Shown here one piece after another: positions 28,588-49,566 of a stretch of 64,000 nucleotides of DNA. The DNA comes from an uncultured Alphaproteobacteria bacterium (lineage in GTDB: Bacteria; Pseudomonadota; Alphaproteobacteria; Rhizobiales; Xanthobacteraceae), in NCBI GenBank assembly GCA_963765365.1, contig CAVXWL010000036.1, positions 18,502 to 82,501 on the forward strand, in the 5' to 3' direction. The notes under the pieces are model-generated. The model searched no databases and had not been told where the DNA came from. It saw nothing but the letters and a program-made list of their open reading frames with translations. A program made the position numbers and the translations under genes. Within the stretch, counting starts at the first letter, position 1. Every line of letters starts with the position of its first letter.

Positions 28588-29313
28588 TCAGCCGTTGATG
28601 CGGCGAAGCGTCGAACGGTTTCGCAGGACCACCTGTCGGGTCGACACTTCGATCCCGCCGTGATCTTTGAGAAATTTCAGCGTCCGCGACACTGTCTCTA
28701 TGGTCAGCCCGAGATAATCGGCGATGTCCTGACGTAACATCGGCAATTCAATCGAGTCTCCCGTCGATCGCTTGGCCATTTCGAGGATGAACCAGGCGAC
28801 GCGCTCCTCAGCGGTTTTGGCGAGCAGCAATACGCGATCTTGCACACGGGCCAGTTCACGGGCGGTAAGCATCAGCAGCTGGCGCGCTACCGCCGCGTCG
28901 CTACTTGCCAAGGCCATCAGCGCTGCGCGTTTGACAACTAGAATCTTGGCGTCCGATATGGCTTCTGCCGCGCGGTCGTGCCGATCGATATGTTCGAGCG
29001 CGAAACTTTCGTCCGCCAGGTAGAACGAGTTGATGTGGCGGCGGCCGTCGCTGAGGATTTTGTAGGTACAAACAGTGCCGGCCAGAACTTTGTAGATTTG
29101 GTTGGCCGGCCCCTCGTCGCCGAAAATCTGTTTGTTCCGAGAAAAGGACCTGACCACTCCCACGCTGAGCATGGCGTGCTCAAGCGCCCCGCTGCTCCCT
29201 GTATTCGGAGCGACCTGCTTGTATTCCAGTAACGCAAGCGGATTTTGGACTGCCAGATTTTGAGAAACACGGAGAGCCGTCGCCTGCGTCTGCATATGCC
29301 GCCCCATTCTCAA
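28588..29313 (-). CDS. Crp/Fnr family transcriptional regulator, FixK-like
   Basis: cNMP-like barrel (IYKVLAGTVCTYKILSDGRR) and C-terminal HTH RQDIADYLGLTIETVSRTL; no N-terminal Cys cluster, so FixK-like rather than Fnr-like. Confidence 0.85.
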   Translation of the reverse strand: MRMGRHMQTQATALRVSQNLAVQNPLALLEYKQVAPNTGSSGALEHAMLSVGVVRSFSRNKQIFGDEGPANQIYKVLAGTVCTYKILSDGRRHINSFYLADESFALEHIDRHDRAAEAISDAKILVVKRAALMALASSDAAVARQLLMLTARELARVQDRVLLLAKTAEERVAWFILEMAKRSTGDSIELPMLRQDIADYLGLTIETVSRTLKFLKDHGGIEVSTRQVVLRNRSTLRRING

Positions 29314-29919: not shown

Positions 29920-30561
29920 TCATCTGGATCGCCCAATGCCGAGCGTGTCGGCAATTCGCACCAAATCGGCAACGGAGTGCGCCTCCATTTTTCTCATCAG
30001 GTTATGCCGATGGGCTTTTATGGTGCCTTCGCTGAGGCCGATCCGGGCCGCGGTCTCCTTGTTCATCATTCCTGCAATGACATGGGCCATTACTTCGCGC
30101 TCGCGCTCGCTGAGCATTGCGTAGCGGCGCCGCATTTCCGATAGCTCGTTATCCAACCGCCGTTCCTTGCGATCGCGGGCAAGCGCCGCGCCGACGGCGT
30201 TCAGCACGTCCTGTTCGCGCAGCGGCTTGGTGAGGAAATCTACGGCGCCGGACTTCATGGCGTCCACCGTCATCGGGATGTCGCCATGTCCGGTAATGAA
30301 AATGACGGGAATCTTGTTCCGCGCCTCGATCAGCTCTTTTTGAAAATCAAGGCCGTTTATTCCCGGCATGCGAATGTCCAGTATCAGACAACGCGAATCG
30401 CCGGACGGGCTGCTGCGTAAAAAGTCTTGCACCGATGCGAAAGTGATGCAGCCGAGGCCGACCAATTCAAGCAAATGCTTGAGGCCGCTGCGGACGTCGG
30501 GATCGTCATCCACGACAAAGACCACAGAATCTGCATCGGGCTGGATTAGCGTCGTCGCCAT
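29920..30561 (-). CDS. FixJ/LuxR-type two-component response regulator
   Basis: Start at MATTLIQ; VFVVDDD, LILDIRMPG, DFLTKP receiver plus LSEREREVM..ETAARIGLSEGTIKAHRHNLMRKM HTH. Confidence 0.9.
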   Translation of the reverse strand: MATTLIQPDADSVVFVVDDDPDVRSGLKHLLELVGLGCITFASVQDFLRSSPSGDSRCLILDIRMPGINGLDFQKELIEARNKIPVIFITGHGDIPMTVDAMKSGAVDFLTKPLREQDVLNAVGAALARDRKERRLDNELSEMRRRYAMLSEREREVMAHVIAGMMNKETAARIGLSEGTIKAHRHNLMRKMEAHSVADLVRIADTLGIGRSR

Positions 30562-30842
30562 CAGGACGTCCTTTGAGGGGTCTCTCATAAATATTGAACC
30601 ACGCCGGCCGCGCGGAGAAAACCGCGCGCGGACGCCGATGGCACAATCAACATCAGGAGGAACGGGTTCAGTCATGACCGTTTCGCCCGGCTGCGAATGT
30701 GCGCCCTTCGGCTTTGTCACCGGCCGAGGCTGCGCTGAGGAGTTTCGCCGAACTGGAAGAGGGCGGTCTCCGGGACGCTGGGTACGCGTCCGGCGCACAT
30801 TCTGCTCCAAAGTCCATGTTAAAGAGGGCCGGGGACGAGGCT

Positions 30843-30948: not shown

Positions 30949-32599
30949 TTGCGACAGCATAAGGCTAATTCATCGACTGCGGAGGCACGCGTGGCCGGAC
31001 GCGGGGCGACCGACGGATTAGATTTCTCGATTGCAACAATTCCGCCGACGCCGCGGCAGCGAAAGCTCGCCGTCGGCGTCGTGGCGGTGCTGCTCGTTGG
31101 ATTTGCGGTTGTCGCTCCGTTCGCCGCGACGCGATTGCCGCGCCTGGACAGTTTCGTTCCCACCGTCGAGGCCATCGTCCTCGTGGCCGACCTCGCGACG
31201 TCAGCACTGTTGTTTAGCCAGTACGCCAATGTGCAGTTGCGCGGCCTCCTGATTTTGGCGGACGGTTATCTTCTCTCGGCGCTGATCGTCGTTCCGCACG
31301 CGCTTTCATATCCGGGCGCATTTGCGCCCGGCGGACTATTCGTCTCGGGACTTCAGGTTACGCCGTGGCTTTATACGGCCTGGCATTTGCTGTTCTCAGT
31401 CGCGGTCCTCGTCTATGCATGTCTCAAGCGCGAGACGCAAAACGATATTTCAGGCGCTGCCACGGCGTATCCTGCGATTTATTGGAATGTCGCTGCGGTC
31501 GCGACCTTCGTCTGTGCGTTTACATGGCTCGTTACGGCGGGAGAAAAGTTCGTACCGCGGCTGATTGCCGACGAGGTCAGCTTTACGCCGATGGCGAGTT
31601 ATGTGACCGGCGTGACCGTGGCGACAACCATTTCTGCGCTTCTGGCACTTTGGGTTCGGCGCAATTCGCTCCTCGATCTTTGGCTCATGGTTGCAACCGT
31701 TGCGGCGCTCGTTGAACAGGCGATCGTCAGCTTATTTATCGGCGGCCGCTTCAGCGTGGGCTTTTACACAAGCCGTCTATTCTCGGTCGTGGTCTCGACG
31801 ATTGTCCTGGTCGCGCTGCTTTCGGAAACGATTACACTTTACGCACGGCTGGTGCGCGCCAACCGCGCGCTGCAGCGTGAGCGCGACAGCAAGCTGCTGA
31901 ATCTCGAAGTGGCCGTGGCGGCGATCGCGCACGAGGTCCGCCAGCCCTTGACCGGCATCGCCACGATGAGCGCGGCCGCACGCCGGTTCCTGTCGCGCGA
32001 ACCGCCGGATATTCCACGCGTTCAGGCGATATTGGATGAGGTCGCAGGCGCCGGCTTTCGCACCAACGAGGTGATTGAAAGTGTCCGCGCGTTGTTCCGG
32101 AGTCCTGAGCAGGATCAGCATCCGGTGGACCTCAACGGCGTGACGCTGGAAGCCCTGCAATTGCTGCGCCGGGACTTCGATGATTACGGTATCATTGTAA
32201 GCACGGAGCTGACATCCGAATTGCCGCTGATCATGGGGAATAAAGGGCAATTGCGGGAGGTCGTCCTGAAATCTGATGCAAAATGCCATCGATGCCATGG
32301 CGGGCGTTATGGATCGGCGGCGGCGCCTGCGCGTCGAGACCGAACGGCGCGAGGGAACGGTTGCAATATCCGTGGAAGATAGCGGTCCTGGGATCGATCC
32401 AAAAAGTCTGCCGGGCATCTTCGATCCGTTTGTGACCACAAAGACGAATGGCATGGGATTGGGCCTCGCCATCTCGCAGATAATCGTCGAACGACATAAC
32501 GGCCAGCTTGCGGTGGTCCCCGGCGCCGTCCGTGGTGCGCGATTTCAAGTCACGTTTCCGATCAAACCAGCAAGCGATGCGGCGGGGGCAACCGGTTAA
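30949..32599 (+). pseudogene. Membrane sensor histidine kinase, frameshifted between HisKA and HATPase (A-run 32269-32271)
   Basis: Multi-TM N-terminal half, H-box AHEVRQPLTGI, then GQLREVVL | NLMQNAIDAM..DSGPGI..GMGLGLA continues in the next frame (ORF 32276-32599); CTGAAATCTGATG would read LNLM with one A fewer. Confidence 0.8.
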
Positions 32600-32621: not shown

Positions 32622-33425
32622 TCAATATCGCTCGGTTACGAAGCGCCAATTCTTCAATGGCGCCTGGTCGTCATATTTATTTTTCTTCGAACGCGGCGGC
32701 AGCGTCACTTTTTCACGCGGCAGTTTTTTGTAGGGGATGCGCGAGAGAAGATGTGAAATGCAATTCAGCCGTCCGCGCCGCTTGTCATCGGTCCGTACGA
32801 TGTACCAGGGCGCGATTTTGGTGTCGGTTGCTTCCAGCATGAGGTCGCGAGCTCGAGAGTAATCGTACCAGTGGCTATAGGACTCGACATCCATCGGGCT
32901 CAATTTCCATTGCCGCATCGGGTCGTCGATGCGCGCCATGAAACGACGCTCCTGCTCCTCCATGCCGACTTCCAGCCAGATTTTGATCAGAATGATGCCG
33001 GCTTCGGCGACGTAACCCTCGATCGTCGGACAAAGCTCCAAAAAGCGCTTGTGCTGCTCCTTGGTTGCAAATCCCATGACGTATTCGACACCCGCCCGAT
33101 TATACCAGCTGCGATCGAAGATCACGACTTCACCCGCCGCGGGAAATTGAGTGACGTAGCGTTGCAAGAACATCTGGCCCTTCTCGCGGTCGCTTGGGGC
33201 CGGTAGGGCGACGACTCGGAAAACGCGGGGGCTCACCCGTTCGGTGATTGCCTTGATGGTGCCGCCTTTGCCCGCGGCGTCTCGCCCTTCGAAGACGATG
33301 ATGATCTTCAGGCCCTTGGCTTTAATCCATTCCTGCAGGCGGCAAAGTTCGACCTGGAGCTTGCGCAGCTCTTTTTCGTAGGCTTTGCGTTTGAGGGCTT
33401 CCGGCGCCTTAGCTTTTCCTGCCAT
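32622..33425 (-). CDS. ppk2: Polyphosphate kinase 2
   Basis: Start at MAGKAK; FEGRDAAGKGG Walker A, FDRSWYNR, typical PPK2 layout. Confidence 0.9.
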   Translation of the reverse strand: MAGKAKAPEALKRKAYEKELRKLQVELCRLQEWIKAKGLKIIIVFEGRDAAGKGGTIKAITERVSPRVFRVVALPAPSDREKGQMFLQRYVTQFPAAGEVVIFDRSWYNRAGVEYVMGFATKEQHKRFLELCPTIEGYVAEAGIILIKIWLEVGMEEQERRFMARIDDPMRQWKLSPMDVESYSHWYDYSRARDLMLEATDTKIAPWYIVRTDDKRRGRLNCISHLLSRIPYKKLPREKVTLPPRSKKNKYDDQAPLKNWRFVTERY

Positions 33426-33502
33426 GACCAATTCACCCCGACGATGCAATGAACCCAACTCGTTGAAACCATTGATGGTAGCCCCAAAATAAATACGCAT
33501 TC

Positions 33503-33516
33503 TTGAGATAGATCAA
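33503..33516. promoter_or_regulatory. FNR/FixK-type box TTGAGATAGATCAA
   Basis: Exact TTGA-N6-TCAA between ppk2 (-) and 33571 (+). Confidence 0.7.
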
Positions 33517-33570: not shown

Positions 33571-34044
33571 ATGGCCGAAGCGACGAAGTCTGCGACGTCA
33601 GATCCCCTGGCGGGCTTGCCGAGCGCCAAAGAGGTGATGGCGGAAATTGCCCGCAAGGAGGCCGAGAAGGCGTCGGCGGCGGTGCAGGAAATGTCGGCGG
33701 CGGACGCCGAGAAAAAGGCTTTGCTGGAGAAGTTTTCCAAGCCGTCCGGCGTTTCCGACGAAGATCGGCTCGAGCGCGCAGCCGCCATCATCAGGCGCGC
33801 CGCCAGCAATGGCCTGTTCGAGGTGGAGATCGTTCGCTTTCCCAACGAGATGTGCACCGACCGCGGCCGCGCGATCAATCAGGGCGAAGCAGGATGGGAA
33901 AAGACTCTGACGGGATTCCCGAAGGAGCTCTATGACTTCTGGGAACGGCACCTAAGGTCCAAGGGCTACAAAGTCGGATTCCGAATTGTGGATTTCCCTG
34001 GCGGCGTGCCCGGCGACGTCGGCATGACGCTACGCTGGAATTAG
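33571..34044 (+). CDS. Conserved hypothetical protein (157 aa)
   Basis: Coherent ORF with a charged helical N-terminal half; FixK-type box about 60 nt upstream. Confidence 0.55.
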   Translation: MAEATKSATSDPLAGLPSAKEVMAEIARKEAEKASAAVQEMSAADAEKKALLEKFSKPSGVSDEDRLERAAAIIRRAASNGLFEVEIVRFPNEMCTDRGRAINQGEAGWEKTLTGFPKELYDFWERHLRSKGYKVGFRIVDFPGGVPGDVGMTLRWN

Positions 34045-37436: not shown

Positions 37437-39155
37437 TCAGCGCGCTTCGCCTTCGGCCGCGGTAAGACTGCTCAACAGGCTGTCGAGCGTTATCACGCGC
37501 GCGAGGCCGCCGACTTTTTCACCGAGTCCATCGGCACGAAGAAGGTCGCGCACGCGGCCGCGCGCGCCGACGATGCGCAACACGATATTGTAAGGGGCAA
37601 GCTCGCCATGCAGTTGATGCAGCATCCGCGACCCTGCAAGATCGACATAAGGCGAGGCGGAGAGGTCGCAGACCACGGCGCGAATATTGCGGAATCCGAG
37701 CTGCCGGACACGATCAAGAACCAGGTGCAGCACCGGGTCGGCGTTGACATAAAGCAGTGAGGCTTCCGGACGAAACGCCAGCACATGCGGCAAATTCTCG
37801 TTTTCCGGATGCCGGTCGAGGTCGGAATAGCTGTGTGTGCCGGGAACGCGACCTAGAAACGCAACGTGTGGCTGTGAGGCGCGGGCGACCAACATCAAAA
37901 GCGAAATGCCCGCGGCGAGGAGCATGCCCTGCATGATCCCTAGAAGCAGCACCGCGCAAAGAGCGACAGCCGCCGCGTAGAAATCCATTTTGCTGATGCG
38001 CCATGTCCGGTAGAGCGACCGCACATCGACGAGCCCGATCACGGCCGTGAAGACAACCGCTGCCAACACCGCCTTGGGGAGATTCTCCAGAAACCCCGTC
38101 AGAAACATGAGGCACAGCGCGAGCGTGATCGAAGCGAAAATCAGGGATAGCGGCGTGCGGGCGCCGGCTTTGTCGTTGACGGCCGATTGCGACAGGCCCC
38201 CGGCGACCGGGTAGCCCTGACCAAGCGCCGCCGCCAAATTCGCCGCGCCGAGGCCGAGAAGCTCCTGCCGGGGATCGAGCTCGTAGCCGTGCTTGGCGGC
38301 GAAGGCGCGCGCCGCCGAAACGCCCTCGATGTAAGCGAGCAGGAGGCATCCCGCTGCCAGCGGGAAGATCCCCTCGACGTCCCGTAAACGTAGATCCGGT
38401 CCGCTTAGCGCCGGAAGCCCGGGCGGGATCTTTCCTGTAACCGCGACACCGAGAGCGGACAGTCCGAAGACCGAAGCGATGATGATGGCCACCGCGACAA
38501 CCACGAGCGCGATCGGCCTTCCCGGCATGAAGCGATCGCCCAGCAGAAGGGCCGCAATCGCCAGAACGCCAATTGCGAGCACCAGAGGCTGCGTTTGGCC
38601 GAGATGCTCGGCAAAGAGCAGGATGCGCTCAAAAAAATTGTGCCCGCCGCCCGGAATACCAAACAGGCTGGGCAACTGAGTCATGATGATGGTAAGGCCC
38701 GCGCCGGCCTTAAAGCCGAGCAGGATGCTGTCGCTGATCAGGCGCACCAACATACTCAGACGCAGAAGCCAGGAAATTGCGCACAGCAATGCGACGGTGA
38801 ACGCCGCGAGGCTTGCGATCGCGATATATCGCTGTGCATCGCCACCGGCCATGGTGACGACGGTGGCGGCTATCATCAACGAGATCGCCGAGGTCGGTCC
38901 GACTGCGAGTTGGCGCGACGAGCCAAAAAGCGCGTAGCCGATCCCGCCGAGGAGATAGCCATAGATGCCGACCTGCGGCGGCAGTTCCGCCAATGCTGCA
39001 TAGGCCAACGAGACCGGAATGGCGTAGGCGGCGAGTGTCACGCCGGCGATCAGGTCGTGCGGCAACCACTCCTTTTGATAGGTCGCGAGCCACCGCACCG
39101 GCGGCAGATAGCTGAACCGAGCAGACCGATCCTTGTGCTGTGCTGACTCTTCCAT
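37437..39155 (-). CDS. SulP family inorganic anion transporter with C-terminal STAS domain
   Basis: 572 aa; DL.AG.T.A...IP..LAYA.LA.LPP..GLY N-terminal SulP signature, anti-sigma-antagonist-like tail. Confidence 0.9.
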   Translation of the reverse strand: MEESAQHKDRSARFSYLPPVRWLATYQKEWLPHDLIAGVTLAAYAIPVSLAYAALAELPPQVGIYGYLLGGIGYALFGSSRQLAVGPTSAISLMIAATVVTMAGGDAQRYIAIASLAAFTVALLCAISWLLRLSMLVRLISDSILLGFKAGAGLTIIMTQLPSLFGIPGGGHNFFERILLFAEHLGQTQPLVLAIGVLAIAALLLGDRFMPGRPIALVVVAVAIIIASVFGLSALGVAVTGKIPPGLPALSGPDLRLRDVEGIFPLAAGCLLLAYIEGVSAARAFAAKHGYELDPRQELLGLGAANLAAALGQGYPVAGGLSQSAVNDKAGARTPLSLIFASITLALCLMFLTGFLENLPKAVLAAVVFTAVIGLVDVRSLYRTWRISKMDFYAAAVALCAVLLLGIMQGMLLAAGISLLMLVARASQPHVAFLGRVPGTHSYSDLDRHPENENLPHVLAFRPEASLLYVNADPVLHLVLDRVRQLGFRNIRAVVCDLSASPYVDLAGSRMLHQLHGELAPYNIVLRIVGARGRVRDLLRADGLGEKVGGLARVITLDSLLSSLTAAEGEAR

Positions 39156-39187: not shown

Positions 39188-39991
39188 CTAGTCCATGATG
39201 TGATAGCCGCCGTCGATATAAAGCGTCTCGCCGGTGATAAGGCGGGCCGCGTCATGGGCCAGAAACGCGACGGCGACGCCGACATCGTCGATACTGACGA
39301 GACTGCGCGCCGGAGCCTTCGCTTTCGCCTTGTCGAGCAGGGCGTCGAACTCAGGGATACCCGACGCCGCACGCGTCGCCAGTGGACCGGGCGAGATGGC
39401 ATGGACACGAATGCCCTTGGGGCCGAGTTCGGCTGCGATATAGCGCACCGCGGACTCGAGCGCGGCCTTGGCGACGCCCATGATGTTGTAGTTCTTCACC
39501 ACCATCTGGCTGCCGTAATAGGTCATGGTGAAAAGCGTGCCGCCTTTGCGCATCAGCGGTTCGGCCAGGTGCGCCATCCGGATGAACGTCCAGCACGACA
39601 CATCCATGGTCTTGAGGAAGCCGTCCTGTGTGACGTCGACGACGCGGCCGTGGAGCGCTTCTTTCGGCGAAAAGGCAATGGAATGGACCACGAAATCAAG
39701 CTTGCCCCAGATCTTGGTAATGCGCTCAAAAACCGCTTCCATCTGACCGGGGACGTTCACGTCAAGCGGCATGACGATCGGCGCCTCAAGATCGCGCGCC
39801 AGCGGTTCGACATATTTTTTCGCTTTGTCGTTGAGGTAGGTGACCGCGAGCTCGGCACCGAACGCGCGGAACGCCTTGGCGCAGCCCCAGGCGATCGAAT
39901 CTTCGTTGGCGATTCCGACAATCAGTCCGCGCTTACCCTCAAGGAGTTTCGCCTTCACCACGGGGATGCCGTTTTTGACCGGCAGACTCAT
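39188..39991 (-). CDS. fabI: Enoyl-[acyl-carrier-protein] reductase (NADH), FabI-type
   Basis: Start at MSLPVK; GKRGLIVGIANE.SIAWG, Y..MGVAKAALE catalytic Tyr-Lys, YIDGGYHI end. Confidence 0.9.
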   Translation of the reverse strand: MSLPVKNGIPVVKAKLLEGKRGLIVGIANEDSIAWGCAKAFRAFGAELAVTYLNDKAKKYVEPLARDLEAPIVMPLDVNVPGQMEAVFERITKIWGKLDFVVHSIAFSPKEALHGRVVDVTQDGFLKTMDVSCWTFIRMAHLAEPLMRKGGTLFTMTYYGSQMVVKNYNIMGVAKAALESAVRYIAAELGPKGIRVHAISPGPLATRAASGIPEFDALLDKAKAKAPARSLVSIDDVGVAVAFLAHDAARLITGETLYIDGGYHIMD

Positions 39992-40085
39992 TTCGATGCC
40001 CTCGTGCGACGACGAACTGCTCTCGTTACCCCGGCAAAAGACGCGCGGAACCAACGTTTTATTGCATCGCACCGCGCCGGGCGAT

Positions 40086-40099
40086 TTGACTTAGATCAA
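40086..40099. promoter_or_regulatory. FNR/FixK-type box TTGACTTAGATCAA
   Basis: Exact TTGA-N6-TCAA in the divergent region between fabI (-) and the DUF3141 gene (+). Confidence 0.7.
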
Positions 40100-40217
40100 A
40101 GCGATGCTGCAACGCACGTGATTTCCTTGGGTTTTCGTCGCTTGCCTTGGTGAGCGCGAGCTCGCGGCCATTTCGCCAAATGCAGTCGTAGACCAGCCGG
40201 AAAAGTGAGCGGATAAA

Positions 40218-42455
40218 ATGCCGTCGCACCAAACGGACCAACCGTCGCCTGGTGCATTTGGGGTCTTTGGCCTGTTTGCGCCGGCCCTCGAATACGCATT
40301 CGACGCCGCTCAGCGCAGCATCCTGTTCCTGGATGTCATGCGGCAGCGCGGCAATCAATATCGCGAGCATCTTGCCGAAACGGCGCCGCATGTTCTCGAT
40401 TATGAAGTCGAGGTTGTCGTTGACGGCCGCAAGCTCAATCGCCCGGTCAACTATGCGCTGGTCCGGATCATTCCGCCGCCGGGCGCGAAAATCGTTCCGA
40501 CGCAAAGGCCGTTTGTCGTGGTCGACCCGCGCGCGGGGCATGGCCCGGGGATCGGCGGCTTCAAGGCCGACAGCGAAATCGGCGTTGCGTTCAAGGCTGG
40601 TCATCCATGTTACTTCGTCGGCTTCCTTCCGGAGCCGATGCCCGGGCAGACAATCGAAGACATCGCGGCCGCGGAAGCGATCTTTTTGAAGCAGGTCGCG
40701 GAATTGCATCCGCAGGCAGACGGCAAGCCTTGCGTCATCGGCAATTGCCAGGCCGGATGGGCGGTGATGATGCTGGCCGCCATGCGTCCGGAGTTGTTCG
40801 GGCCAATCATCATCGCGGGCACGCCGCTGTCGTACTGGCAGGGCGTTCATGGCAAATATCCGATGCGCTACTCGGGCGGCCTTCTCGGCGGCAGCTGGCT
40901 CACTGCGCTCGTCGGCGACCTTGGCCACGGCAAATTCGACGGCGCCTGGCTGGTGCAGAATTTTGAAAATCAAAATCCGGCCAACACGTTGTGGACCAAG
41001 CAGTACAATCTCTATTCGAAGATCGACACCGAGGCACCGCGATATCTCGGCTTCGAGCGGTGGTGGGGCGGCCACGTCAATCTCAACGCCGAGGAAATCC
41101 AGTTCATCGTCGATGAGTTATTCGTCGGTAACAATCTCGCGGCCGGAAAAATTCAAACGTCCGACGGCACGGCCATCGATCTCCGCAATATCCGTTCGCC
41201 GATCGTCGTGTTCTGCTCCAAGGGCGACAATGTCACGCCGCCGCAGCAGGCGCTGGGATGGATTCTCGAACTTTACGACAATGTGGACGAAATCCGCGCT
41301 TATGGCCAAACCATCGTCTATACAATTCACGAAAATATCGGCCATCTCGGGATCTTCGTGTCCGGCGACGTTGCTCGGAAAGAACATGGCGAGTTTTCCA
41401 GCAACATCGATCTGATCGACACGCTGCCGCCCGGTCTCTACGAGGCGGTTATTGAGCCGCGGCCCGAGGATGCAGTGGATAGCGACCACGGTGCGTGGAT
41501 CATGCGCTGCGAAGCAAGGACGCTCGATGATATCCGCGCGCTTGGCGGCAATGACATCGAGGATGAGCGCCGTTTCGCGGCGGTCGATCGTTTGTCGCAG
41601 GCCAATGCCGCGCTTTACCGCACCTTTATGCAGCCAGTCGTACGCGCCTTCACCAATCCGCAATTGGCGGAATTGACGCGGCAGCTGCATCCATTGCGGC
41701 TTCAATACGAATTTTTTTCAAACGCCAATCTCATGATGGCACCAGTTGCCACGTTAGCGGACCAGGTCCGGAGAAATCGCCAGGCTGCCGCGCCTGACAA
41801 CCCATATGTCAAACTGCAGCAGAATGTGTCCCGTCAGATTGTCGCCGCGCTCGATACCTGGCGCGAGGCCAGCGAGGCTTTCGCTGAAAAGACGTTCATG
41901 GCGCTCTACAGTTCGCCGCTGTTGCAAGCCGCCCTTGGCGTCGATCCTGCATCATCACAGCCGCAGCGGAAAGCTGCCAAGAGCGAGATCCATCAGGCGC
42001 TCAAGGAGAAGCAAATCGCCGAACTGAAATCGCAAATCGCGATCGGCGGGCTGCGTGAGGCGACCATCCGAGGGCTTCTGTACGCCGGAATGGCGCGCAA
42101 GTCGGTTGACGAGCGCGGATTCGACGTCGTGCGGCGTGCTCGCAAGGCTTACACCGACCTTTCGCTTTCGGCGTTCAAGAAAATCGTGCGCGAACAGTTC
42201 TATATGCTTCTCATCGACCAGGAGGCGGCGCTCGCCGCCATTCCTGAGATGCTTCCGAACGATTTTGGGGCGCGGCGTCAGGCATTGGATCTGATTGCCG
42301 AGGTTTTGGAAGCGCGCGGCGAATATGCCCCGGAAGATCGCGAGCGGATGCAGCGCGTCGTTGCTCTCTTTGGCGTCGAGAGACAACCGGGCAAATTAAG
42401 AACCGTCTCGATCGTTTCCAACAATCATATGAAAAAGCCGGCCAAAGGTTCCTGA
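40218..42455 (+). CDS. DUF3141-type large alpha/beta-hydrolase-fold protein (PHA synthase/depolymerase-like)
   Basis: 745 aa; GNCQAGW nucleophile-elbow-like motif, conserved N-terminal 450 aa pattern recalled from DUF3141 proteins found next to pta/ackA. Confidence 0.65.
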   Translation: MPSHQTDQPSPGAFGVFGLFAPALEYAFDAAQRSILFLDVMRQRGNQYREHLAETAPHVLDYEVEVVVDGRKLNRPVNYALVRIIPPPGAKIVPTQRPFVVVDPRAGHGPGIGGFKADSEIGVAFKAGHPCYFVGFLPEPMPGQTIEDIAAAEAIFLKQVAELHPQADGKPCVIGNCQAGWAVMMLAAMRPELFGPIIIAGTPLSYWQGVHGKYPMRYSGGLLGGSWLTALVGDLGHGKFDGAWLVQNFENQNPANTLWTKQYNLYSKIDTEAPRYLGFERWWGGHVNLNAEEIQFIVDELFVGNNLAAGKIQTSDGTAIDLRNIRSPIVVFCSKGDNVTPPQQALGWILELYDNVDEIRAYGQTIVYTIHENIGHLGIFVSGDVARKEHGEFSSNIDLIDTLPPGLYEAVIEPRPEDAVDSDHGAWIMRCEARTLDDIRALGGNDIEDERRFAAVDRLSQANAALYRTFMQPVVRAFTNPQLAELTRQLHPLRLQYEFFSNANLMMAPVATLADQVRRNRQAAAPDNPYVKLQQNVSRQIVAALDTWREASEAFAEKTFMALYSSPLLQAALGVDPASSQPQRKAAKSEIHQALKEKQIAELKSQIAIGGLREATIRGLLYAGMARKSVDERGFDVVRRARKAYTDLSLSAFKKIVREQFYMLLIDQEAALAAIPEMLPNDFGARRQALDLIAEVLEARGEYAPEDRERMQRVVALFGVERQPGKLRTVSIVSNNHMKKPAKGS

Positions 42456-42490
42456 CCTAGCCGGATCTTCAGCCAAGCAATGGGGTCACG

Positions 42491-43487
42491 ATGCCAGCGG
42501 AAAGAGAAAGCGAAATAGGTACGATCCGGGCCCACGGCCCAGGCGCCCATCCGCCGGAATCGAAATACGAAAGGCTGATCGGCCGGGCAAAAAGCGTCGT
42601 CCCAGGCAAGACCATTGTCGTGCATCCTTGCGACAAGTCGTCGCTTCGCGGTGCGATCGAGGCAGCCCAACTCGGAATCATCAGCCCGATACTTGTCGGG
42701 CCCAAATCCAAGATCGAAGCGGCCGCCCGGCAAAGCAAGCTCGATATCAGCGGGTTTGAGATCGTCGATGTGGCGCATAGCGATGCCGCGGCCGAGCGCG
42801 GCGTAGAGCTCATTCATGAAGGGCGCGGCGAGCTCTTGATGAAAGGCAGTTTGCACACCGACGAACTGATGCGGGCGGTGACCGCTTCCAAGACGGGTTT
42901 GCGAACCGAGCGGCGCATCAGCCATGTCTTCATCATGGATGTGCCGACCTATAGCGAGACCCTGTTCATCACCGATGCCGCTATCAATATCTTTCCCGAT
43001 CTCGACGCCAAGCGCGACATCATTCAGAACGCGATCGACCTCTTCACGGCGGTAGGTCTCGGTACGCCGCGGGTTGCGATCCTCTCCGCGGTCGAAACCG
43101 TTACCTCCAAAATTCCGTCGACAATCGAAGCGGCCGCGCTTTGCAAAATGGCCGATCGCAAGCAGATTACCGGCGGCGTTCTCGACGGCCCGCTTGCATT
43201 CGATAATGCGATTGATCCGGAAGCGGCAAGGATCAAGGGGATCGAGTCTCCGGTCGCCGGCCGGGCGCAAATTCTGATCGTGCCCGATCTCGAGGCCGGC
43301 AACATGCTGGCGAAAAATCTGATCTTCCTGTCGAAGGCGGAATTCAGCGGGGATCGTCCTTGGAGCGCGGGTGCCGATCGTGCTCACCTCGCGTGCGGAT
43401 TCGGTGCGAAGCCGCATGGCGTCCTGCGCCGCCGCCGTGATTTATGCCGCCGCGCGGCGGGAGACCCCAAACAAGGCCGTGGTGTAG
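42491..43487 (+). pseudogene. pta: Phosphate acetyl/butyryl-transferase (PTA_PTB family) with frameshift in G-run 43349-43352
   Basis: ..ILVGP.., LMKGSLHTDELM, DAAIN, PDLEAGNMLAKNL; after ..SKAEFSG the next frame gives IVLGARVPIVLTSRADSVRSRMASCAAAVIYA..-TAG (43485-43487). Confidence 0.8.
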
Positions 43488-43493
43488 TCGGCC

Positions 43494-44672
43494 ATGGACG
43501 CGGTTCTCGTTGTCAATGCGGGCTCTTCCAGCGTTAAATTTCAGATTTTCGAACATTCGCCGTCTGCGGCGCCGATATGTCTCGTCAAAGGCCAGATGGA
43601 CGGGATCGGCACCAAGCCGCGGCTGCGCGCCACCGACGGCAACGGGACGCCACTCGTCGATCAGACTTACGGGCCAGGCGAGATAGCCGATGGGCCGGCG
43701 GCGATCGCGGCGGTCGGTGACTGGCTGCGCAATACCCAGAAACTCGCACTCGTTGCGGTCGGCCACCGCGTCGTACATGGCGGGCCCGATTACGATCGTC
43801 CCATTCTGCTCGACTGCGATGTGCTGACGCGGCTGGAGAAGTATTGTCCGCTCGCGCCGCTCCACCAACCCAACAACCTTGCGCCTATTCGCATGCTGAT
43901 GGAACGGCGTCCTGATCTGCCTCAGGTCGCTTGTTTCGACACGGCATTTCATCGCTCGCACGGACCGCTCGCTGACAGATACGCGATCCCGGAAAAGTTT
44001 TATCGCGAAGGCGTGCGGCGCTACGGTTTCCACGGTCTATCCTACGAATATGTCGCCGGTCGGTTGCCTGAAATCGCGCCGGATATAGCCCACGGGCGTG
44101 TTGTCGTCGCCCATCTCGGCAGCGGTGCATCGATGTGCGCGCTGTTTGAGGGAAAAAGCGTCGAAAGCACCATGGGCTTTACCGCGCTGGACGGCCTGCC
44201 GATGGGAACCCGTCCCGGCCAGATCGACCCGGGCGTCCTTCTTTATCTGTTCACGGCGAAGGGCATGAGCGCGTCGGCGGTGGAAGACCTGCTCTATCGC
44301 GACTGCGGCCTCAAGGGGATGTCCGGTATCAGCAACGATTTGCGGGAACTGCTGACGAGCGAGGCCCCGGCCGCGGCATTGGCCATTGACTATTTCGTTT
44401 ATCGCATCGCGCTGAATGCCGGCATGCTGGCGGCCGCGCTGGGTGGGCTGGACGCGTTTGTCTTTACCGCGGGCATCGGCGAAAATTCGGCGACGATCCG
44501 TTCGCGCATCGCGCAGAAGCTTGCGTGGCTCGGCGCAAATTTCGACGAACAAGCGAACGAAAGCAGCATGGCGCTGATATCCGGTCCGGGCAGCAAGATA
44601 AAGATCTACATCGTGCCGACAAACGAAGAGTTGATGATCGCCCGCCATACGCTGCAGCTTCTTCGGAAATAG
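43494..44672 (+). CDS. ackA: Acetate (short-chain acyl) kinase
   Basis: [49 protein letters not shown] motifs. Confidence 0.9.
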
Positions 44673-44704
44673 AGTTTTGCATCCAGCAACATAACGTTTG
44701 CGCT

Positions 44705-44718
44705 TTGATGTAGATCAA
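44705..44718. promoter_or_regulatory. FNR/FixK-type box TTGATGTAGATCAA (core of a 24-nt perfect palindrome 44700-44723)
   Basis: Exact TTGA-N6-TCAA about 75 nt upstream of the pflB start. Confidence 0.75.
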
Positions 44719-44786
44719 AGCGCCTGGCGGCGCGTCGCCCGTAAAATTCTTGCAAAATCGGATAATTTGCGGAGAGGAGCGTCGCC

Positions 44787-47068
44787 ATGGAGGCACCGGC
44801 CGGCAGGCCCGAAGGTGGCACGCATGATCGGGCTTGGAGATCGTTCACTCCGGGCGATTGGCGCACGACAATCGACGTGCGGGACTTCATTACGCGCAAT
44901 GTCAAGCCTTACGCCGGCGACGAGAAATTTCTTGTAGGGCCGTCCTCCCGCACCAAGGCCGTTTGGGCCCGATTGCAGCCTTATTTCGAGCAGGAGCGGA
45001 AAAAAGGCGTGCTTGCCGTCGACGCCCACACGCCTTCGACGCTGCTCGCCCACAAAGCCGGCTATATCGATAAGGACAACGAAGTCGATCGTCGGGCTGC
45101 AGACGGACCAGCCTTTCAAGCGCGCGATATTCCCGTACGGCGGCTTGCGGATGGTGGAGGCCGGCCTGAAGGCCGCGGGCTTCGAAGCCGATCCCCAGGT
45201 CCATCGAGACCTTCACCAAATATCGCAAGACGCACAACGACGGCGTGTTCGATGCCTACACGCCCGAAATCATGAAATGCCGCAGGTCGGGCATCATCAC
45301 CGGCCTGCCGGATTCCTATGGCCGCGGGCGCATCATCGGCGACTACCGCCGCGTCGCCCTCTACGGCGTCAAGCGCCTGCTGGAGGTCAAGCAGGCCGAA
45401 CGCGCCCAGATCGACGATATGTGGCCGACCGACGAAATCATCCGTCAGCGCGAGGAACTCGCCGAGCAGATCCGCGCGCTCGGCGATCTGGTCGCCATGG
45501 CCAAGCTTTACGATTGCGATATCACGCAGCCGGCCATCGATGCCCAGGAAGCGGTGCAGTGGACTTACCTCGCTTATCTTGGCGCCGTAAAGGAAGCCAA
45601 CGGCGCGGCGATGTCGATCGGCCGCATCTCGACCTTCCTCGATATCTTCATTGAGCGCGACATGCGTGACGGCGAACTGGATGAAGAGGGCGCCCAGGAA
45701 TTGTGGGACCAGCTCGTCCAGAAACTACGCATCGTCCGGTTCCTGCGCACGCCGGACTATGATGCGCTGTTCAGCGGCGACCCGTATTGGGCGACCGAAT
45801 GCGTCGGCGGTCATCGGTCTGGACGGACGATCGCTGGTCACCAAGAGCAGCTATCGCATGCTGCACACGCTGACCAATCTCGGTCCTGCGCCAGAGCCCA
45901 ATATCACCGTATTGTGGTCGAAGCAGCTGCCGGACAATTTCAAACGCTACTGCGTCAAGGTCAGCCGCGACACGTCATCGCTGCAATACGAGAACGACGA
46001 CCTGATGCGTCCGTATTGGGGCGACGATTACGGCATCGCCTGCTGCGTTTCTGCGATGCGGCTCGGCAAGCAGATGCAATTCTTCGGCGCGCGCGTGAAT
46101 CTCGCCAAGGCGCTGCTCTACGCCATCAATGGCGGCCGCGATGAAATGTCCGGCGACCAGATTGCGCCGCCGGCGCCGCCCGTGACCGGCGAGATACTTG
46201 ACTACGATGAGGTCTTCGCGAAGTTCGATCACATGATGGAGTGGCTGGCGCGCACCTACGTGCATGCCATGAATTGCATCCACTACATGCACGACAAGTA
46301 TTTCTACGAACGCCTTGAGATGGCGCTGCACGATCGCGACGTCTTGCGCACCATGGCGTTCGGCATCGCCGGGCTGTCGGTGGTCGCCGACAGCCTTGTC
46401 GGCGATCAAATACGGCAAGGTCCACGTTATTCGCGACGCTACCGGTCTGGCCGTCGATTATCGCATCGAATACGACGGCATCAATGCCGTGCCGCAATTC
46501 GGCAACAACGACGATCGGGTGGACAGCATCGCCGCGGAACTCGTCACGCGGTTCATGGAGAAGATCCGCAAGCATCCGACCTATCGCAACGCGACCCATA
46601 CCCAGAGCGTACTGACCATCACGTCGAACGTGGTCTACGGCAAGGCGACCGGCAACACGCCGGATGGGCGCCGCAAGGGCGAGCCGTTCGGGCCCGGTGC
46701 CAACCCGATGCACGGCCGCGACAGCCATGGCTGGCTGGCGTCGTGTCTGTCAGTTGCGAAGTTGCCCTACAAGGATGCGTTGGACGGCATCAGCTACACC
46801 GTATCGGTTGCGCCGCAGAAGGCGCATCTGTCCGACACCGAACTCGTCGACGCCGCGGTCAAGGCTTTCGACATGTATTTCGGTCAAGGCGGCTTCCACA
46901 TGAATTTGAACGTCATCGACAAGGAGACGCTCGAAGACGCCATGAAGAATCCGGACAAGTACCCGCAGCTTGACGATCCGGGTATCCGGCTATGCGGTCA
47001 ACTTCATTCGCCTCACGCGCGAGCAGCAATAGGACGTGATCAACCGCACCTTTCACGGCCAAGTTTGA
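44787..47068 (+). pseudogene. pflB: Pyruvate formate-lyase (glycyl-radical enzyme), 5 frameshifts plus 1 premature TAG
   Basis: Collinear with E. coli PflB as I remember it, across frames 0,1,2,0,1,2: breaks at 45087, 45202, 45812, 46398, 46972; IACCVS active site and RVSGYAV glycyl-radical motif present; TAG at 47030-47032 where PflB has Gln (EQQ-Q-DVI). Confidence 0.9.
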
Positions 47069-47083
47069 GCCGGGAGGCAATCG

Positions 47084-47914
47084 GTGTCACAACTCGGTGA
47101 ACTGGAGCCAGGAAGCCGGTACGATCTGCATGTCGGGATTTCGCCCGACGCGCCGGATGAGAGCGCTCTGCGGGACGATGCCGAAGGCGCTTTCGGCTAT
47201 GCGCACTCCTACGAAACCTCGTCACGCTACGACGGCCCGGGATTGCGCGTCGTTCTGTTCGTCTCTGGCTGCCTCCTTCGCTGCACCTATTGTCATAACC
47301 CCGATACCTGGCATCTGAAGGACGGCACCTACGTCTCGGCGAAGGATGTCATCGACCGACTTGCGGGTTTTGCGCCGTCGCTTCGGGTCCTGGACGGCGG
47401 CCTCACCATCTCCGGCGGCGAACCGATGGTTCAGCTCGCTTTTACCCGGCGCATCCTGGCGGGCGCAAAGCAGCTTGGCCTGCATACCGCGATCGAAACC
47501 TCGGGGTTTCTGGGCGATCACGCCGACGAGCGATATCTCGCCGCGCTCGATCTCGTCTTGCTCGACATCAAGAGCTCGGATCCGGACACCTACCGTGCTG
47601 TCACCGGGCGCGAATTGGCGCCGACGTTGCGCTTCGCCGAGCGGCTGGCTGCGATCGGCAAGCCGGTGTGGGTGCGGTTCACGCTCGTTCCAGGCCTTAC
47701 CGACGACCCCGGCAACGTCGAAGGCATCGCCCGCTTTGTCGCGCCGATGAAGAATGTCGAATGGGTCGAGGTGCAGCCATTCCATCAGCTCGGCGCCTTT
47801 AAATGGAAAGCGATGCATCTCGAATACAAGGATGCGCAGACTGCACCGCCGACTGCCGAACTGAAGGATCGCGTTCTTGAACAATTCCGTGCGGCCGGTT
47901 GCCGCGTGCGCTAG
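47084..47914 (+). CDS. pflA: Pyruvate formate-lyase activating enzyme (radical SAM)
   Basis: [14 protein letters not shown] (CxxxCxxC), [14 protein letters not shown]; intact ORF. Confidence 0.85.
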
Positions 47915-47961
47915 CCGCCATTGCAGCGGCGCGAATAGAATGCAGGGCCGGAGATAAGATC

Positions 47962-49566
47962 ATGCTCGATTTTGCACGCGGTATCATCGGTTCGCAACCG
48001 ATCCTGACCGCCTTTCTCGCCATCGGATTGGGCTATCTCGTCGGCCAGATCAGCATCGGCGGATTTTCGCTCGGTGTAGGCGCGGTGCTGTTTGTTGGTC
48101 TTGCGCTTGGCGCATTCGCGCCGAAGGCGCAGATCGTCGGCCCCGATTGGACTGATCGGGCTGATCATGTTCCTCTACGGCGTCGGCATTCTCTATGGCC
48201 GGCAATTCTTCGAGGGTATGACGGGCGTCGAAGGGCGAAAATACAATCTGCTTGCTCTCGTTGCCGTTGCCGTCGGCCTCGCTGTCGCCCTTGGGCTCGG
48301 TCACGTCTTCGGCGTAAAAATCGGTCACACGCTTGGCATTTTTGCCGGTTCGATGACCAGCACCGCCACGCTGCAGGCGGCGCTCGACACGATGAAAAAC
48401 ACCGAGCCGTCGATCGGCTATTCGGTTGCCTATCCCTTTGGCGTCATCGGCCCGATTCTGTGCATGTATTTCATGACGCGCATGGTCCAGCCGAAATTTC
48501 CGCCGAAGGCGCCGCAAATGCATATGGGCGAGATCGCGCTCGGTCCAAATTTTGGTGGCCAGCCGCTCCATGAACTCAGCAAGGACCTTCCGAGCGGCAT
48601 GCAAGTGACGATGGTACGCAAAGGCGGCCAAAACTACCTGCCTTCCGCCGCTTTGCTGCTTGAAGCCGGGGACGCTCTTTTGGTCGTCGCCGAACGGCAG
48701 GACGACATTGCCGCGACCGCGGCGCGTTTGGGCACGCTCGAGCCGGGACGCATCGTCAAGGACCGCGCGGATCTCGACTACATCCGCGTCTTTGTCGGCA
48801 AGGCGAATGTTGTCGGCGTGCCGCTGGCGAAGTTGTCTTTGCCCAGCGGACTTTCCGGTACAGTTGCTTCACGTCAGGCGGTACGACGTCGACCTGGTTC
48901 CTTCGCCGGATTTGACGCTGGAGTTCGGCGATCGGGTCGGCGTTCTGATGCCCCCGGATCGCAAGGAAGAAATCCGGCGCTACTTCGGCGATACCGTGAA
49001 ATCGGCAGCCGAATTCAGCTATGTCTCGCTGGGCGTCGGAATGGTGCTCGGGCGTTTTGATCGGTCTCGTTCCAATTCCGATCCCTGGCGTCGGCACCGT
49101 GACGCTCGGTATCGGCGGCGGTCCGCTGATCGTCGCGCTGATTGCCGGCAAACTCCGCCGAACCGGCCCGCTGCTTTGGGTCATGCCGCTGCCAGCGAAT
49201 ATCGTGCTCCGCAACTTTGGCCTCGCGCTGTTCCTGGCTACGGTCGGGGTCAATGCCGGCCAGCCATTTTTGAAGACGATAACGGAAACCGGATTCACGC
49301 TGTTCTGGATCGGCGTCGCAGTTCTCTTGGCTACGGTCCTGATTGTACTGCTGGTCGGATATTATGTCTTGAAAATCGCCTACGACGACCTGATGGGGAT
49401 CGCTGCCGGCGCCACCGGAAACCCGGCGATCCTGATCTACGGCACGCGCATGGCGCCGACCGAACGTCCCGATGTCGGCTACGCCATGATCTTTCCATCG
49501 ATGACCATCGTTAAAGTGATCGCAGTGCAGATCGTCGGTTTGATGTTTGGGGTCGGCATAAGCTGA
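47962..49566 (+). pseudogene. AAE-family (aspartate:alanine exchanger / YidE-YbjL-like) transporter with 3 frameshifts
   Basis: MLDFARGIIGSQPILTAFLAIGLGYLVGQI.. then frames 1,2,0,1; breaks at C-run 48141-48144, about 48849, and G-run 49050-49052; central TrkA-C-like segment, duplicated membrane halves. Confidence 0.8.

Follow-up and report, generated by a model that had tools for sequence, protein, structure and literature searches.

A stretch of 64,000 nucleotides (nt) from contig CAVXWL010000036.1 of an uncultured bacterium of the Xanthobacteraceae (assembly GCA_963765365.1, 4.78 Mb in 38 contigs), hereafter the window, carries at positions 39188-44672 a small cluster that brings together a DUF3141 protein, a phosphotransacylase, an acyl kinase and an enoyl reductase, and whose possible part in the metabolism of poly(3-hydroxybutyrate) (PHB) is discussed here. 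The DUF3141 protein (745 aa; PF11339, 943 bits) is encoded on the plus strand at 40218-42455 and its stop codon is followed after 35 nt by pta (plus strand, 42491-43487 when frame-corrected; NF008852, 453 bits), which specifies a Ptb-like phosphotransacylase, and then by ackA (plus strand, 43494-44672; PF00871, 352 bits), which specifies an intact 392-aa kinase of the acetate/propionate family, i.e. the orfA-type gene order of Sinorhizobium meliloti. On the minus strand lie fabI (39188-39991; 267 aa, 448 bits on NF005717), whose true start is the ATG at 39991 since the listed GTG at 40072 would append 27 codons without support, and, 32 nt downstream of it, a gene for a SulP-STAS anion transporter (37437-39155) that recurs near the module. 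As fabI is followed so closely by sulP, the FixK/FNR-type box TTGACTTAGATCAA at 40086-40099, which has one mismatch to TTGAT-N4-ATCAA, sits between two divergent operons, fabI-sulP and DUF3141-pta-ackA. An earlier, sequence-only reading of this DNA had described the same gene set, with fabI divergent from the DUF3141 unit and a common promoter region containing a box at 40086, all of which is borne out by the open reading frames (ORFs) and family scores, the coordinates and a motif scan of the window. It had also given intergenic gaps of 35 and 6 nt, the first of which is exact, while the second holds in the frame-corrected reading only, because the uncorrected pta ORF reaches 43537 and overlaps ackA. 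The FabI paralogue is not part of the DUF3141 transcription unit in the window, the promoter region alone being in common, and this divergent layout is also seen in seven close relatives. The closest DUF3141 relatives of the window protein come from metagenome-assembled genomes (MAGs) of Xanthobacteraceae, Pseudolabrys and Rhodoplanes.

The association of these genes extends far beyond the window. A pattern scan with one genome per species yielded 598 DUF3141 relatives, of which the best 80 were taken with 10-kb flanks, and neighbours were counted within 7 kb in the 58 loci that have at least 5 kb on both sides. Of these loci, 47 have FabI, 44 have Pta and 43 have AckA; the full set of three is present in 37, and 51 have at least one of the three. 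The commonest order is DUF3141-Pta-AckA-FabI, and DUF3141-pta-ackA occurs in that order in at least 31. PPK2, a polyphosphate kinase, is near DUF3141 in 15 loci and PflA in three; in Burkholderia sp. SFA1 the order is PPK2-SulP-DUF3141-pta-ackA-fabI. Carriers belong to the Alpha-, Beta- and Gammaproteobacteria and the Desulfobacteraceae, with one Nitrospiraceae MAG, and among them are Competibacter, Contendobacter, Defluviicoccus and Dechloromonas. To avoid best-match bias, 400 evenly sampled Pseudomonadota genomes were also searched. DUF3141 is present in 27 of them (~7%, 23 genera); Pta and AckA lie no more than 8 kb from it at 16 of the 21 long-form loci, arranged in at least four ways, and near none of the seven short forms (~600 aa). 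That the linkage is kept through rearrangement argues for functional coupling, and the co-occurrence of DUF3141 with pta, ackA and fabI, put forward earlier as a check, with its absence as a refutation, turns out to be tight across classes and phyla. Short DUF3141 forms (~590 aa) are also seen without Pta or AckA in copper/heavy-metal resistance islands of Roseobacter litoralis (pRLO149_83, locus L088) and Burkholderia vietnamiensis (pBVIE02, locus L104), and may represent a functionally distinct subfamily.

An idea of what the DUF3141 protein might do comes from its fold. When 34 diverse homologues (34-89% identity) are aligned, Asp337 and His376 are the same in all and the motif G-N-C177-Q-x-G-W is near-invariant, its cysteine being kept in 199 of 201 motif-bearing homologues. 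The AlphaFold model (mean confidence score, pLDDT, 84.8) places Cys177 on a strand-helix elbow and the Asp and His after the expected strands, and the seven top matches of this model in a Foldseek search against the PDB are the catalytic domains of PhaC, the synthase of polyhydroxyalkanoates (PHA). In common with class I and III PhaC (PDB 5XAV, 5HZ2, 5T6O and 9KNJ), the protein has an alpha/beta-hydrolase core whose nucleophile elbow carries the Cys of a Cys-Asp-His triad. It differs from these enzymes in its low identity to them (14-18%), in the absence of a PhaC_N domain, the Pfam search having returned PF11339 alone, and in an extra of ~300 residues, modelled as an all-helical C-terminal half from residue ~440 onward with a short basic tail at the end. 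Its scores on PhaC models are well under the cut-offs (22 bits on TIGR01836 against 365, and 19.5 bits on TIGR01838 against 623), and PHB_depo_C (PF06850) was not found in it by the Pfam search. The tail (42380-42455, …MKKPAKGS) is disordered and basic, and resembles the PAKKA-type tails of PHB proteins that bind granules or the nucleoid.

A second line of evidence concerns the genomes in which DUF3141 is found. In the 400-genome sample it is confined to PhaC-positive genomes, a PhaC_N-type synthase being present in 27 of 27 carriers compared to 156 of 400 overall, numbers for which relatedness inflates any formal test but among which the 12 non-alphaproteobacterial carriers are informative, as PhaC is far less common in the background to which they belong. 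A canonical PhaZ, identified as a PHB_depo_C depolymerase, is present in 23 of the 27. Since the carriers retain PhaC and mostly PhaZ, DUF3141 replaces neither and is accessory, which rules it out both as a sole PHA synthase and as a replacement for PhaZ. In Pseudomonas veronii 1YdBTEX2, DUF3141-pta-ackA-fabI is transcribed divergently from a phasin gene, and phbB and phbC lie downstream. The horizontally acquired class I phaC of Pseudomonas is reported to be always accompanied by DUF3141, PhaR and PhaP, and some of these PHB islands also have pta, ackA and fabI (bioRxiv 10.1101/2025.03.12.642780). In Bradyrhizobium diazoefficiens, blr3456-blr3459 (hypothetical protein, pta, ackA2 and fabI) are up ~7-fold in a phaR mutant and have candidate PhaR boxes at -97 and -92, while the adjoining nodN, of the MaoC family, is up 9-fold (PMC10888616). 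The link to a storage polymer that the sequence-only reading had suggested thus gains good comparative support from the presence of PhaC in all carriers, the P. veronii neighbours and the derepression in the phaR mutant. The genome also has a second, intact PHB-linked cluster on another contig (C18:174900-189500; locus L090 = C18:176000-193000), which comprises PhaC, a short-chain dehydrogenase/reductase (SDR), a thiolase, a Zn-dependent alcohol dehydrogenase and a CBS protein, followed by a Ptb-like Pta, AckA, a P-type ATPase, a 464-aa cousin of DUF3141 and class III PhaC, and SulP, with a FixK paralogue ~16 kb upstream. This cousin matches DUF3141 with an hhalign probability of 99.2%, has the same xCQxGW elbow and gives both DUF3141-like and PHB_depo_C signals, and the Pta paralogue of the C18 cluster is 60% identical to that of the window.

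Clues to the substrates are provided by the other enzymes. The window Pta scores only 69 bits on the canonical Pta model TIGR00651 and its closest solved structure is the phosphate butyryltransferase 7VG9 (188 bits, versus 61 bits for Pta), yet its 264 bits on the Ptb equivalog model fall short of the cut-off of 410. In the kinase, the pocket residue matching Pro232 of the Methanosarcina thermophila enzyme is Ala, as in 69 of 71 linked kinases, while the five closest solved kinases have Pro. FabI is the third of its kind in the genome, the two housekeeping FabIs having been found with NF006019. It has the SDR fold and the catalytic Tyr-Tyr-Lys residues, and carries Pro, Asp and Ala at the positions of K201, R204 and K205 in Escherichia coli FabI (the reference sequence used is an exact match to 1C14, and the FabI complex with acyl carrier protein (ACP), 2FHS, is in the same sequence group). 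We take these three basic residues to be the ACP-docking patch (presumably as in Rafi et al., 2006). The patch is lost in the linked clade, where 73 of 77 FabIs have Asp at the Arg204 position, in contrast to both housekeeping FabIs of this genome, which retain Arg. Finally, a MaoC dehydratase domain is fused to the N-terminus of the Pta beside DUF3141 in four loci (L054, L077, L083 and L125). The earlier suggestion that the reductase acts as a redox sink gains support from these fusions and from the charge-reversed docking patch.

The promoter offers a third angle. Within the window, there are 10 sites that match TTGAT-N4-ATCAA with at most one mismatch, compared to 1.43 expected, and none of 100 shuffles reached 10. 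Of 75 related loci, 23 have a FixK/FNR box in the 450 nt before DUF3141, where chance would give 0.029 boxes per 470 nt; the genomes concerned include Bradyrhizobium, Ensifer and Achromobacter, in which fabI is downstream of DUF3141, indicating that the box serves the DUF3141 operon. A box that is commoner than chance and kept in relatives, together with a FixK-type regulator and a FixJ-like protein encoded in the window, is in accord with membership of a FixK/FNR regulon, and we infer that the window operon would be induced by low oxygen. A scan for the PHO box (CTGTCAT-N4-CTGTCAT, at most five mismatches) gave no meaningful match here or upstream of the S. meliloti gene, although the consensus used may be wrong.

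Taken together, these observations lead us to favour a reading in which the module is an accessory branch of PHB metabolism, present here as a local copy with a FixK-type promoter in common with fabI-sulP, to which we would give a probability of roughly 0.45. The operon would probably serve to gain energy from stored PHB when oxygen is absent. Read from sequence, each enzymatic step of the route from PHB via acyl-phosphate to ATP would run as follows. DUF3141 would thiolyse the PHB chain, moving 3-hydroxyacyl units between polymer and coenzyme A (CoA) to give (R)-3-hydroxybutyryl-CoA. A MaoC dehydratase, encoded elsewhere in the genome but fused or adjacent in relatives, would convert part of the 3-hydroxyacyl-CoA to crotonyl-CoA, which the FabI paralogue, freed of ACP docking, would reduce with NADH to butyryl-CoA, thereby re-oxidizing the cofactor. 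The Ptb-like phosphotransacylase would then exchange CoA for phosphate, and the kinase would use the resulting acyl-phosphate to form ATP and a free acid; acetyl-CoA produced by the neighbouring pyruvate formate-lyase (PFL) would be processed by the same pair as well. For each monomer, the cell would gain, on balance, about one ATP and one sink for NADH when respiration fails. In its most explicit form, this scenario makes DUF3141 a PHB:CoA 3-hydroxyacyl-transferase, i.e. a thiolytic depolymerase, feeding a dedicated CoA-level pathway of MaoC, a FabI independent of ACP, a Ptb-like transferase and a kinase resembling AckA. By this pathway the cell would ferment its PHB to butyrate, as well as to 3-hydroxybutyrate or acetate, gaining ATP at the substrate level and re-oxidizing NADH; we regard this full version as tentative and, in all its details, rather unlikely. 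The cysteine nucleophile of DUF3141 is shared by PhaZa1 of Cupriavidus necator. That enzyme, which yields 3-hydroxybutyryl-CoA (Uchino et al., 2007, as summarized in PMC7147478), is a precedent for the proposed thiolysis, although DUF3141 lacks the PHB_depo_C domain.

A number of points weigh against the fermentation of PHB. The kinase belongs to the acetate/propionate family and not to the butyrate kinases, the butyrate-kinase (Buk) model giving only 70 bits, and it retains Val93, Leu122 and Phe179 of the acetate pocket of the M. thermophila kinase, roles that we assume to be those described by Ingram-Smith et al. (2005). No MaoC gene is present in the window cluster, the nearest lying 36 kb off, and most carriers retain PhaZ and so do not depend on DUF3141 alone for depolymerization. 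The S. meliloti enzymes were reportedly assayed by Summers in 1999 with acetyl substrates. The kinase beside FixJ is a MASE4 protein rather than a haem-PAS FixL, so the sensed signal may not be oxygen itself, and the broken frame of pta means that this copy may be inactive.

The type of the kinase is what would be expected if Pta and AckA merely served acetyl-CoA from PFL in a plain acetate fermentation, with DUF3141 an unrelated esterase or acyltransferase and FabI devoted to membrane lipid at low oxygen. The pflB-pflA genes are indeed directly downstream with a perfect box of their own, and an anoxic pyruvate fermentation via AckA-Pta is known in Pseudomonas aeruginosa (as cited in PMC3759415). 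Such a scheme is nevertheless difficult to reconcile with a four-gene linkage that survives many rearrangements, also where no PFL is nearby (PflA being near DUF3141 in only three of the 58 loci), with the confinement of DUF3141 to PhaC-positive genomes, with its links to phasin, PhaR and PhbB/PhbC, with a Pta that is Ptb-like and MaoC-fused in relatives and with the loss of ACP-docking charges in the linked FabI clade, and we consider it distinctly improbable.

The main rival to the PHB-fermentation reading is the opposite direction, in which PHA synthesis serves as an electron sink. Under oxygen limitation, one part of the acetyl-CoA from PFL or pyruvate dehydrogenase would pass through Pta-AckA to give acetate and ATP, while another would be reduced for storage, DUF3141 taking the role of an alternative PHA polymerase; in a variant, acetate would be activated by AckA-Pta with ATP drawn from polyphosphate via PPK2, as in polyphosphate- and glycogen-accumulating organisms. 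This would be in accord with the structural matches of DUF3141, which are PHA synthases and have a triad of synthase type, with the recurrence of PPK2 beside DUF3141 and with the presence of Competibacter, Contendobacter, Defluviicoccus and Dechloromonas among the carriers. Moreover, both in the group D clusters of Burkholderia and in the C18 cluster, the position of DUF3141 beside Pta-AckA is taken by a genuine PhaC, a fact that the synthesis direction fits equally well and that counts against fermentation, and PHA synthesis was proposed by Sass et al. as a sink for the lxa locus of Burkholderia cenocepacia (PMC3721108). However, a second synthase would be redundant in genomes that all have a canonical PhaC, DUF3141 has no PhaC_N, the ATP cost of activating acetate is high in anoxia, and the MaoC-Pta fusions and the FabI paralogue lead away from 3-hydroxyacyl-CoA rather than to polymer and would be left unexplained. 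On balance, synthesis seems unlikely to us.

Whichever direction the module takes, the integrity of this particular copy has to be considered. The extra base in pta was placed in the AA at 43341-43342 by alignment to the closest relative (L099, DUF3141 89% identical, with pta and pflB intact) and to the family consensus xADxAG; an extra G in a GGGG run was rejected as the lesion in favour of an extra A, as homologues read xADxAG there. If the lesion is real, the operon could be a decaying remnant, part of a FixK island that is being lost in a soil lineage, and the module would be nonfunctional here. Besides pta, pflB (44787-47100) is spread over at least four frames and the gene for an AAE-family transporter (47899-49566) is split, while relatives have intact versions (765-aa PflB and 536-aa AAE), and in the ackA of L099 (L099:14140-14160) an in-frame TAG stands in place of the CCG of the window (GAGGCCTAGGCC versus GAGGCCCCGGCC), i.e. 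a different lesion in the same operon. Lesions cluster in few genes: the C18 region examined is intact, and most of the genome has normal long-ORF coverage. The island itself ranks in the lowest few percent by this measure, which is confounded by short genes and lower G+C content at third codon positions. The concentration of lesions in few genes suggests real decay. On the other hand, DUF3141, ackA, fabI, sulP, PPK2 and pflA (47084-47914) are all intact, the pta indel is single, in a 2-base run and near the 3' end, and the contig name of L099 suggests a nanopore assembly, in which indel errors are plausible; a single indel in a short run, in what is possibly a long-read MAG, suggests a sequencing error. 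Furthermore, the C18 Pta paralogue could substitute. Overall, we consider decay of the module rather unlikely.

The operon type is already in print. The orfA-pta-ackA-fabI operon of S. meliloti (Summers, Denton and McDermott 1999, J Bacteriol 181:2217), mentioned in the sequence-only reading as phosphate-starvation inducible, does exist and is cited as PhoB-controlled in PMC8231600 and PMC5789663, and its order DUF3141-Pta-AckA-FabI was confirmed in the S. meliloti genes. It comprises the same four families, at identities to the window proteins of ~70% for DUF3141, 75% for Pta and 79% for FabI, but its genes are co-directional and, according to these citing papers, under PhoB, whereas in the window fabI points away from the DUF3141 unit and is grouped with sulP, a FixK-type box lies in the promoter, and pta is frame-broken. 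The B. diazoefficiens genes blr3456-blr3459 form the same type of operon in the same family (Xanthobacteraceae sensu GTDB) as the window; in Bradyrhizobium loci the order is DUF3141-Pta-AckA-FabI, with a FixK-type box ~110 nt upstream and NodN/MaoC adjoining fabI, the latter being absent from the window. In the lxa locus of B. cenocepacia, which is required for anoxic survival, genes for PhaC, Pta, AckA and alcohol dehydrogenase are up 75- to 242-fold at low oxygen (PMC3721108). This locus and the group D PhaC-(PhaJ)Pta-AckA-FabI clusters of Burkholderia sensu lato resemble the window in having a Ptb-like Pta and AckA beside an enzyme of the PhaC superfamily, along with SulP, a cation ATPase, alcohol dehydrogenase and an FNR-like motif (PMC3721108, PMC8231600). 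Their polymer enzyme is apparently a PhaC with PhaC_N and not a DUF3141 protein, with 2-24% identity to the S. meliloti ORF (PMC8231600), and the closer lxa counterpart in this genome is the C18 cluster. Finally, the clostridial Crt/Bcd, Ptb and Buk branch follows the same logic, from enoyl-CoA reduction through phosphotransacylase and kinase to ATP, but the window reductase is a FabI-type SDR rather than Bcd-Etf and the kinase belongs to the AckA family rather than to Buk.

With the operon type in print, the window copy adds little by itself. The new clues are comparative, namely the nesting of DUF3141 in PhaC-positive genomes, the charge-reversed FabI patch, the Pro-to-Ala change in the kinase and the MaoC-Pta fusions. 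The common view of PHB is that of a store of carbon and redox equivalents whose use depends on respiration. If the fermentative reading were true, the energy of the polyester bond would be conserved as ATP alongside an NADH sink, and PHB would be a true anaerobic energy reserve in respiratory bacteria, which would explain how rhizobia, Burkholderia, Achromobacter, soil Xanthobacteraceae and other obligate respirers survive periods of anoxia, and DUF3141 would gain a function.

The operon is part of a box-rich stretch (26.8-49.8 kb) that can be viewed as a regulon island, with seven FixK-type boxes in intergenic promoter regions over 23 kb (26809, 30843, 33503, 35862, 40086, 44705 and 49744). 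The island includes FixK, FixJ, the MASE4 kinase, PPK2, pflB-pflA and the AAE transporter, as well as GNAT, DUF3300 and AI-2E transporter genes, many of which reappear around DUF3141 in other genomes. Its Crp/Fnr regulator (28588-29313, minus strand), which is FixK-type and lacks the FNR cysteine cluster, likely reads the boxes. It is accompanied by the FixJ-like response regulator (29920-30810, minus strand) and by the adjoining sensor kinase (30949-32382; MASE4 and HisKA), in which no HATPase_c domain was detected although a 466-aa orthologue in a relative has one. The box had been said earlier to recur beside the PPK2 and PFL genes, and it does so at 33503, next to PPK2 (32622-33500, minus strand), and as a perfect copy at 44705-44718, within a palindrome (44700-44723) downstream of ackA and upstream of pflB. 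Adjoining PPK2 and behind a FixK-type box is also a gene on the plus strand (33571-34044) whose product, conserved and 157 aa long, matched nothing in Pfam or NCBIfam. Its homologues are near DUF3141 in 20 of the 58 loci, often directly upstream of it or between DUF3141 and pta, and in its C-terminal part the protein is similar to the end of the CBS protein encoded upstream of pta on C18.

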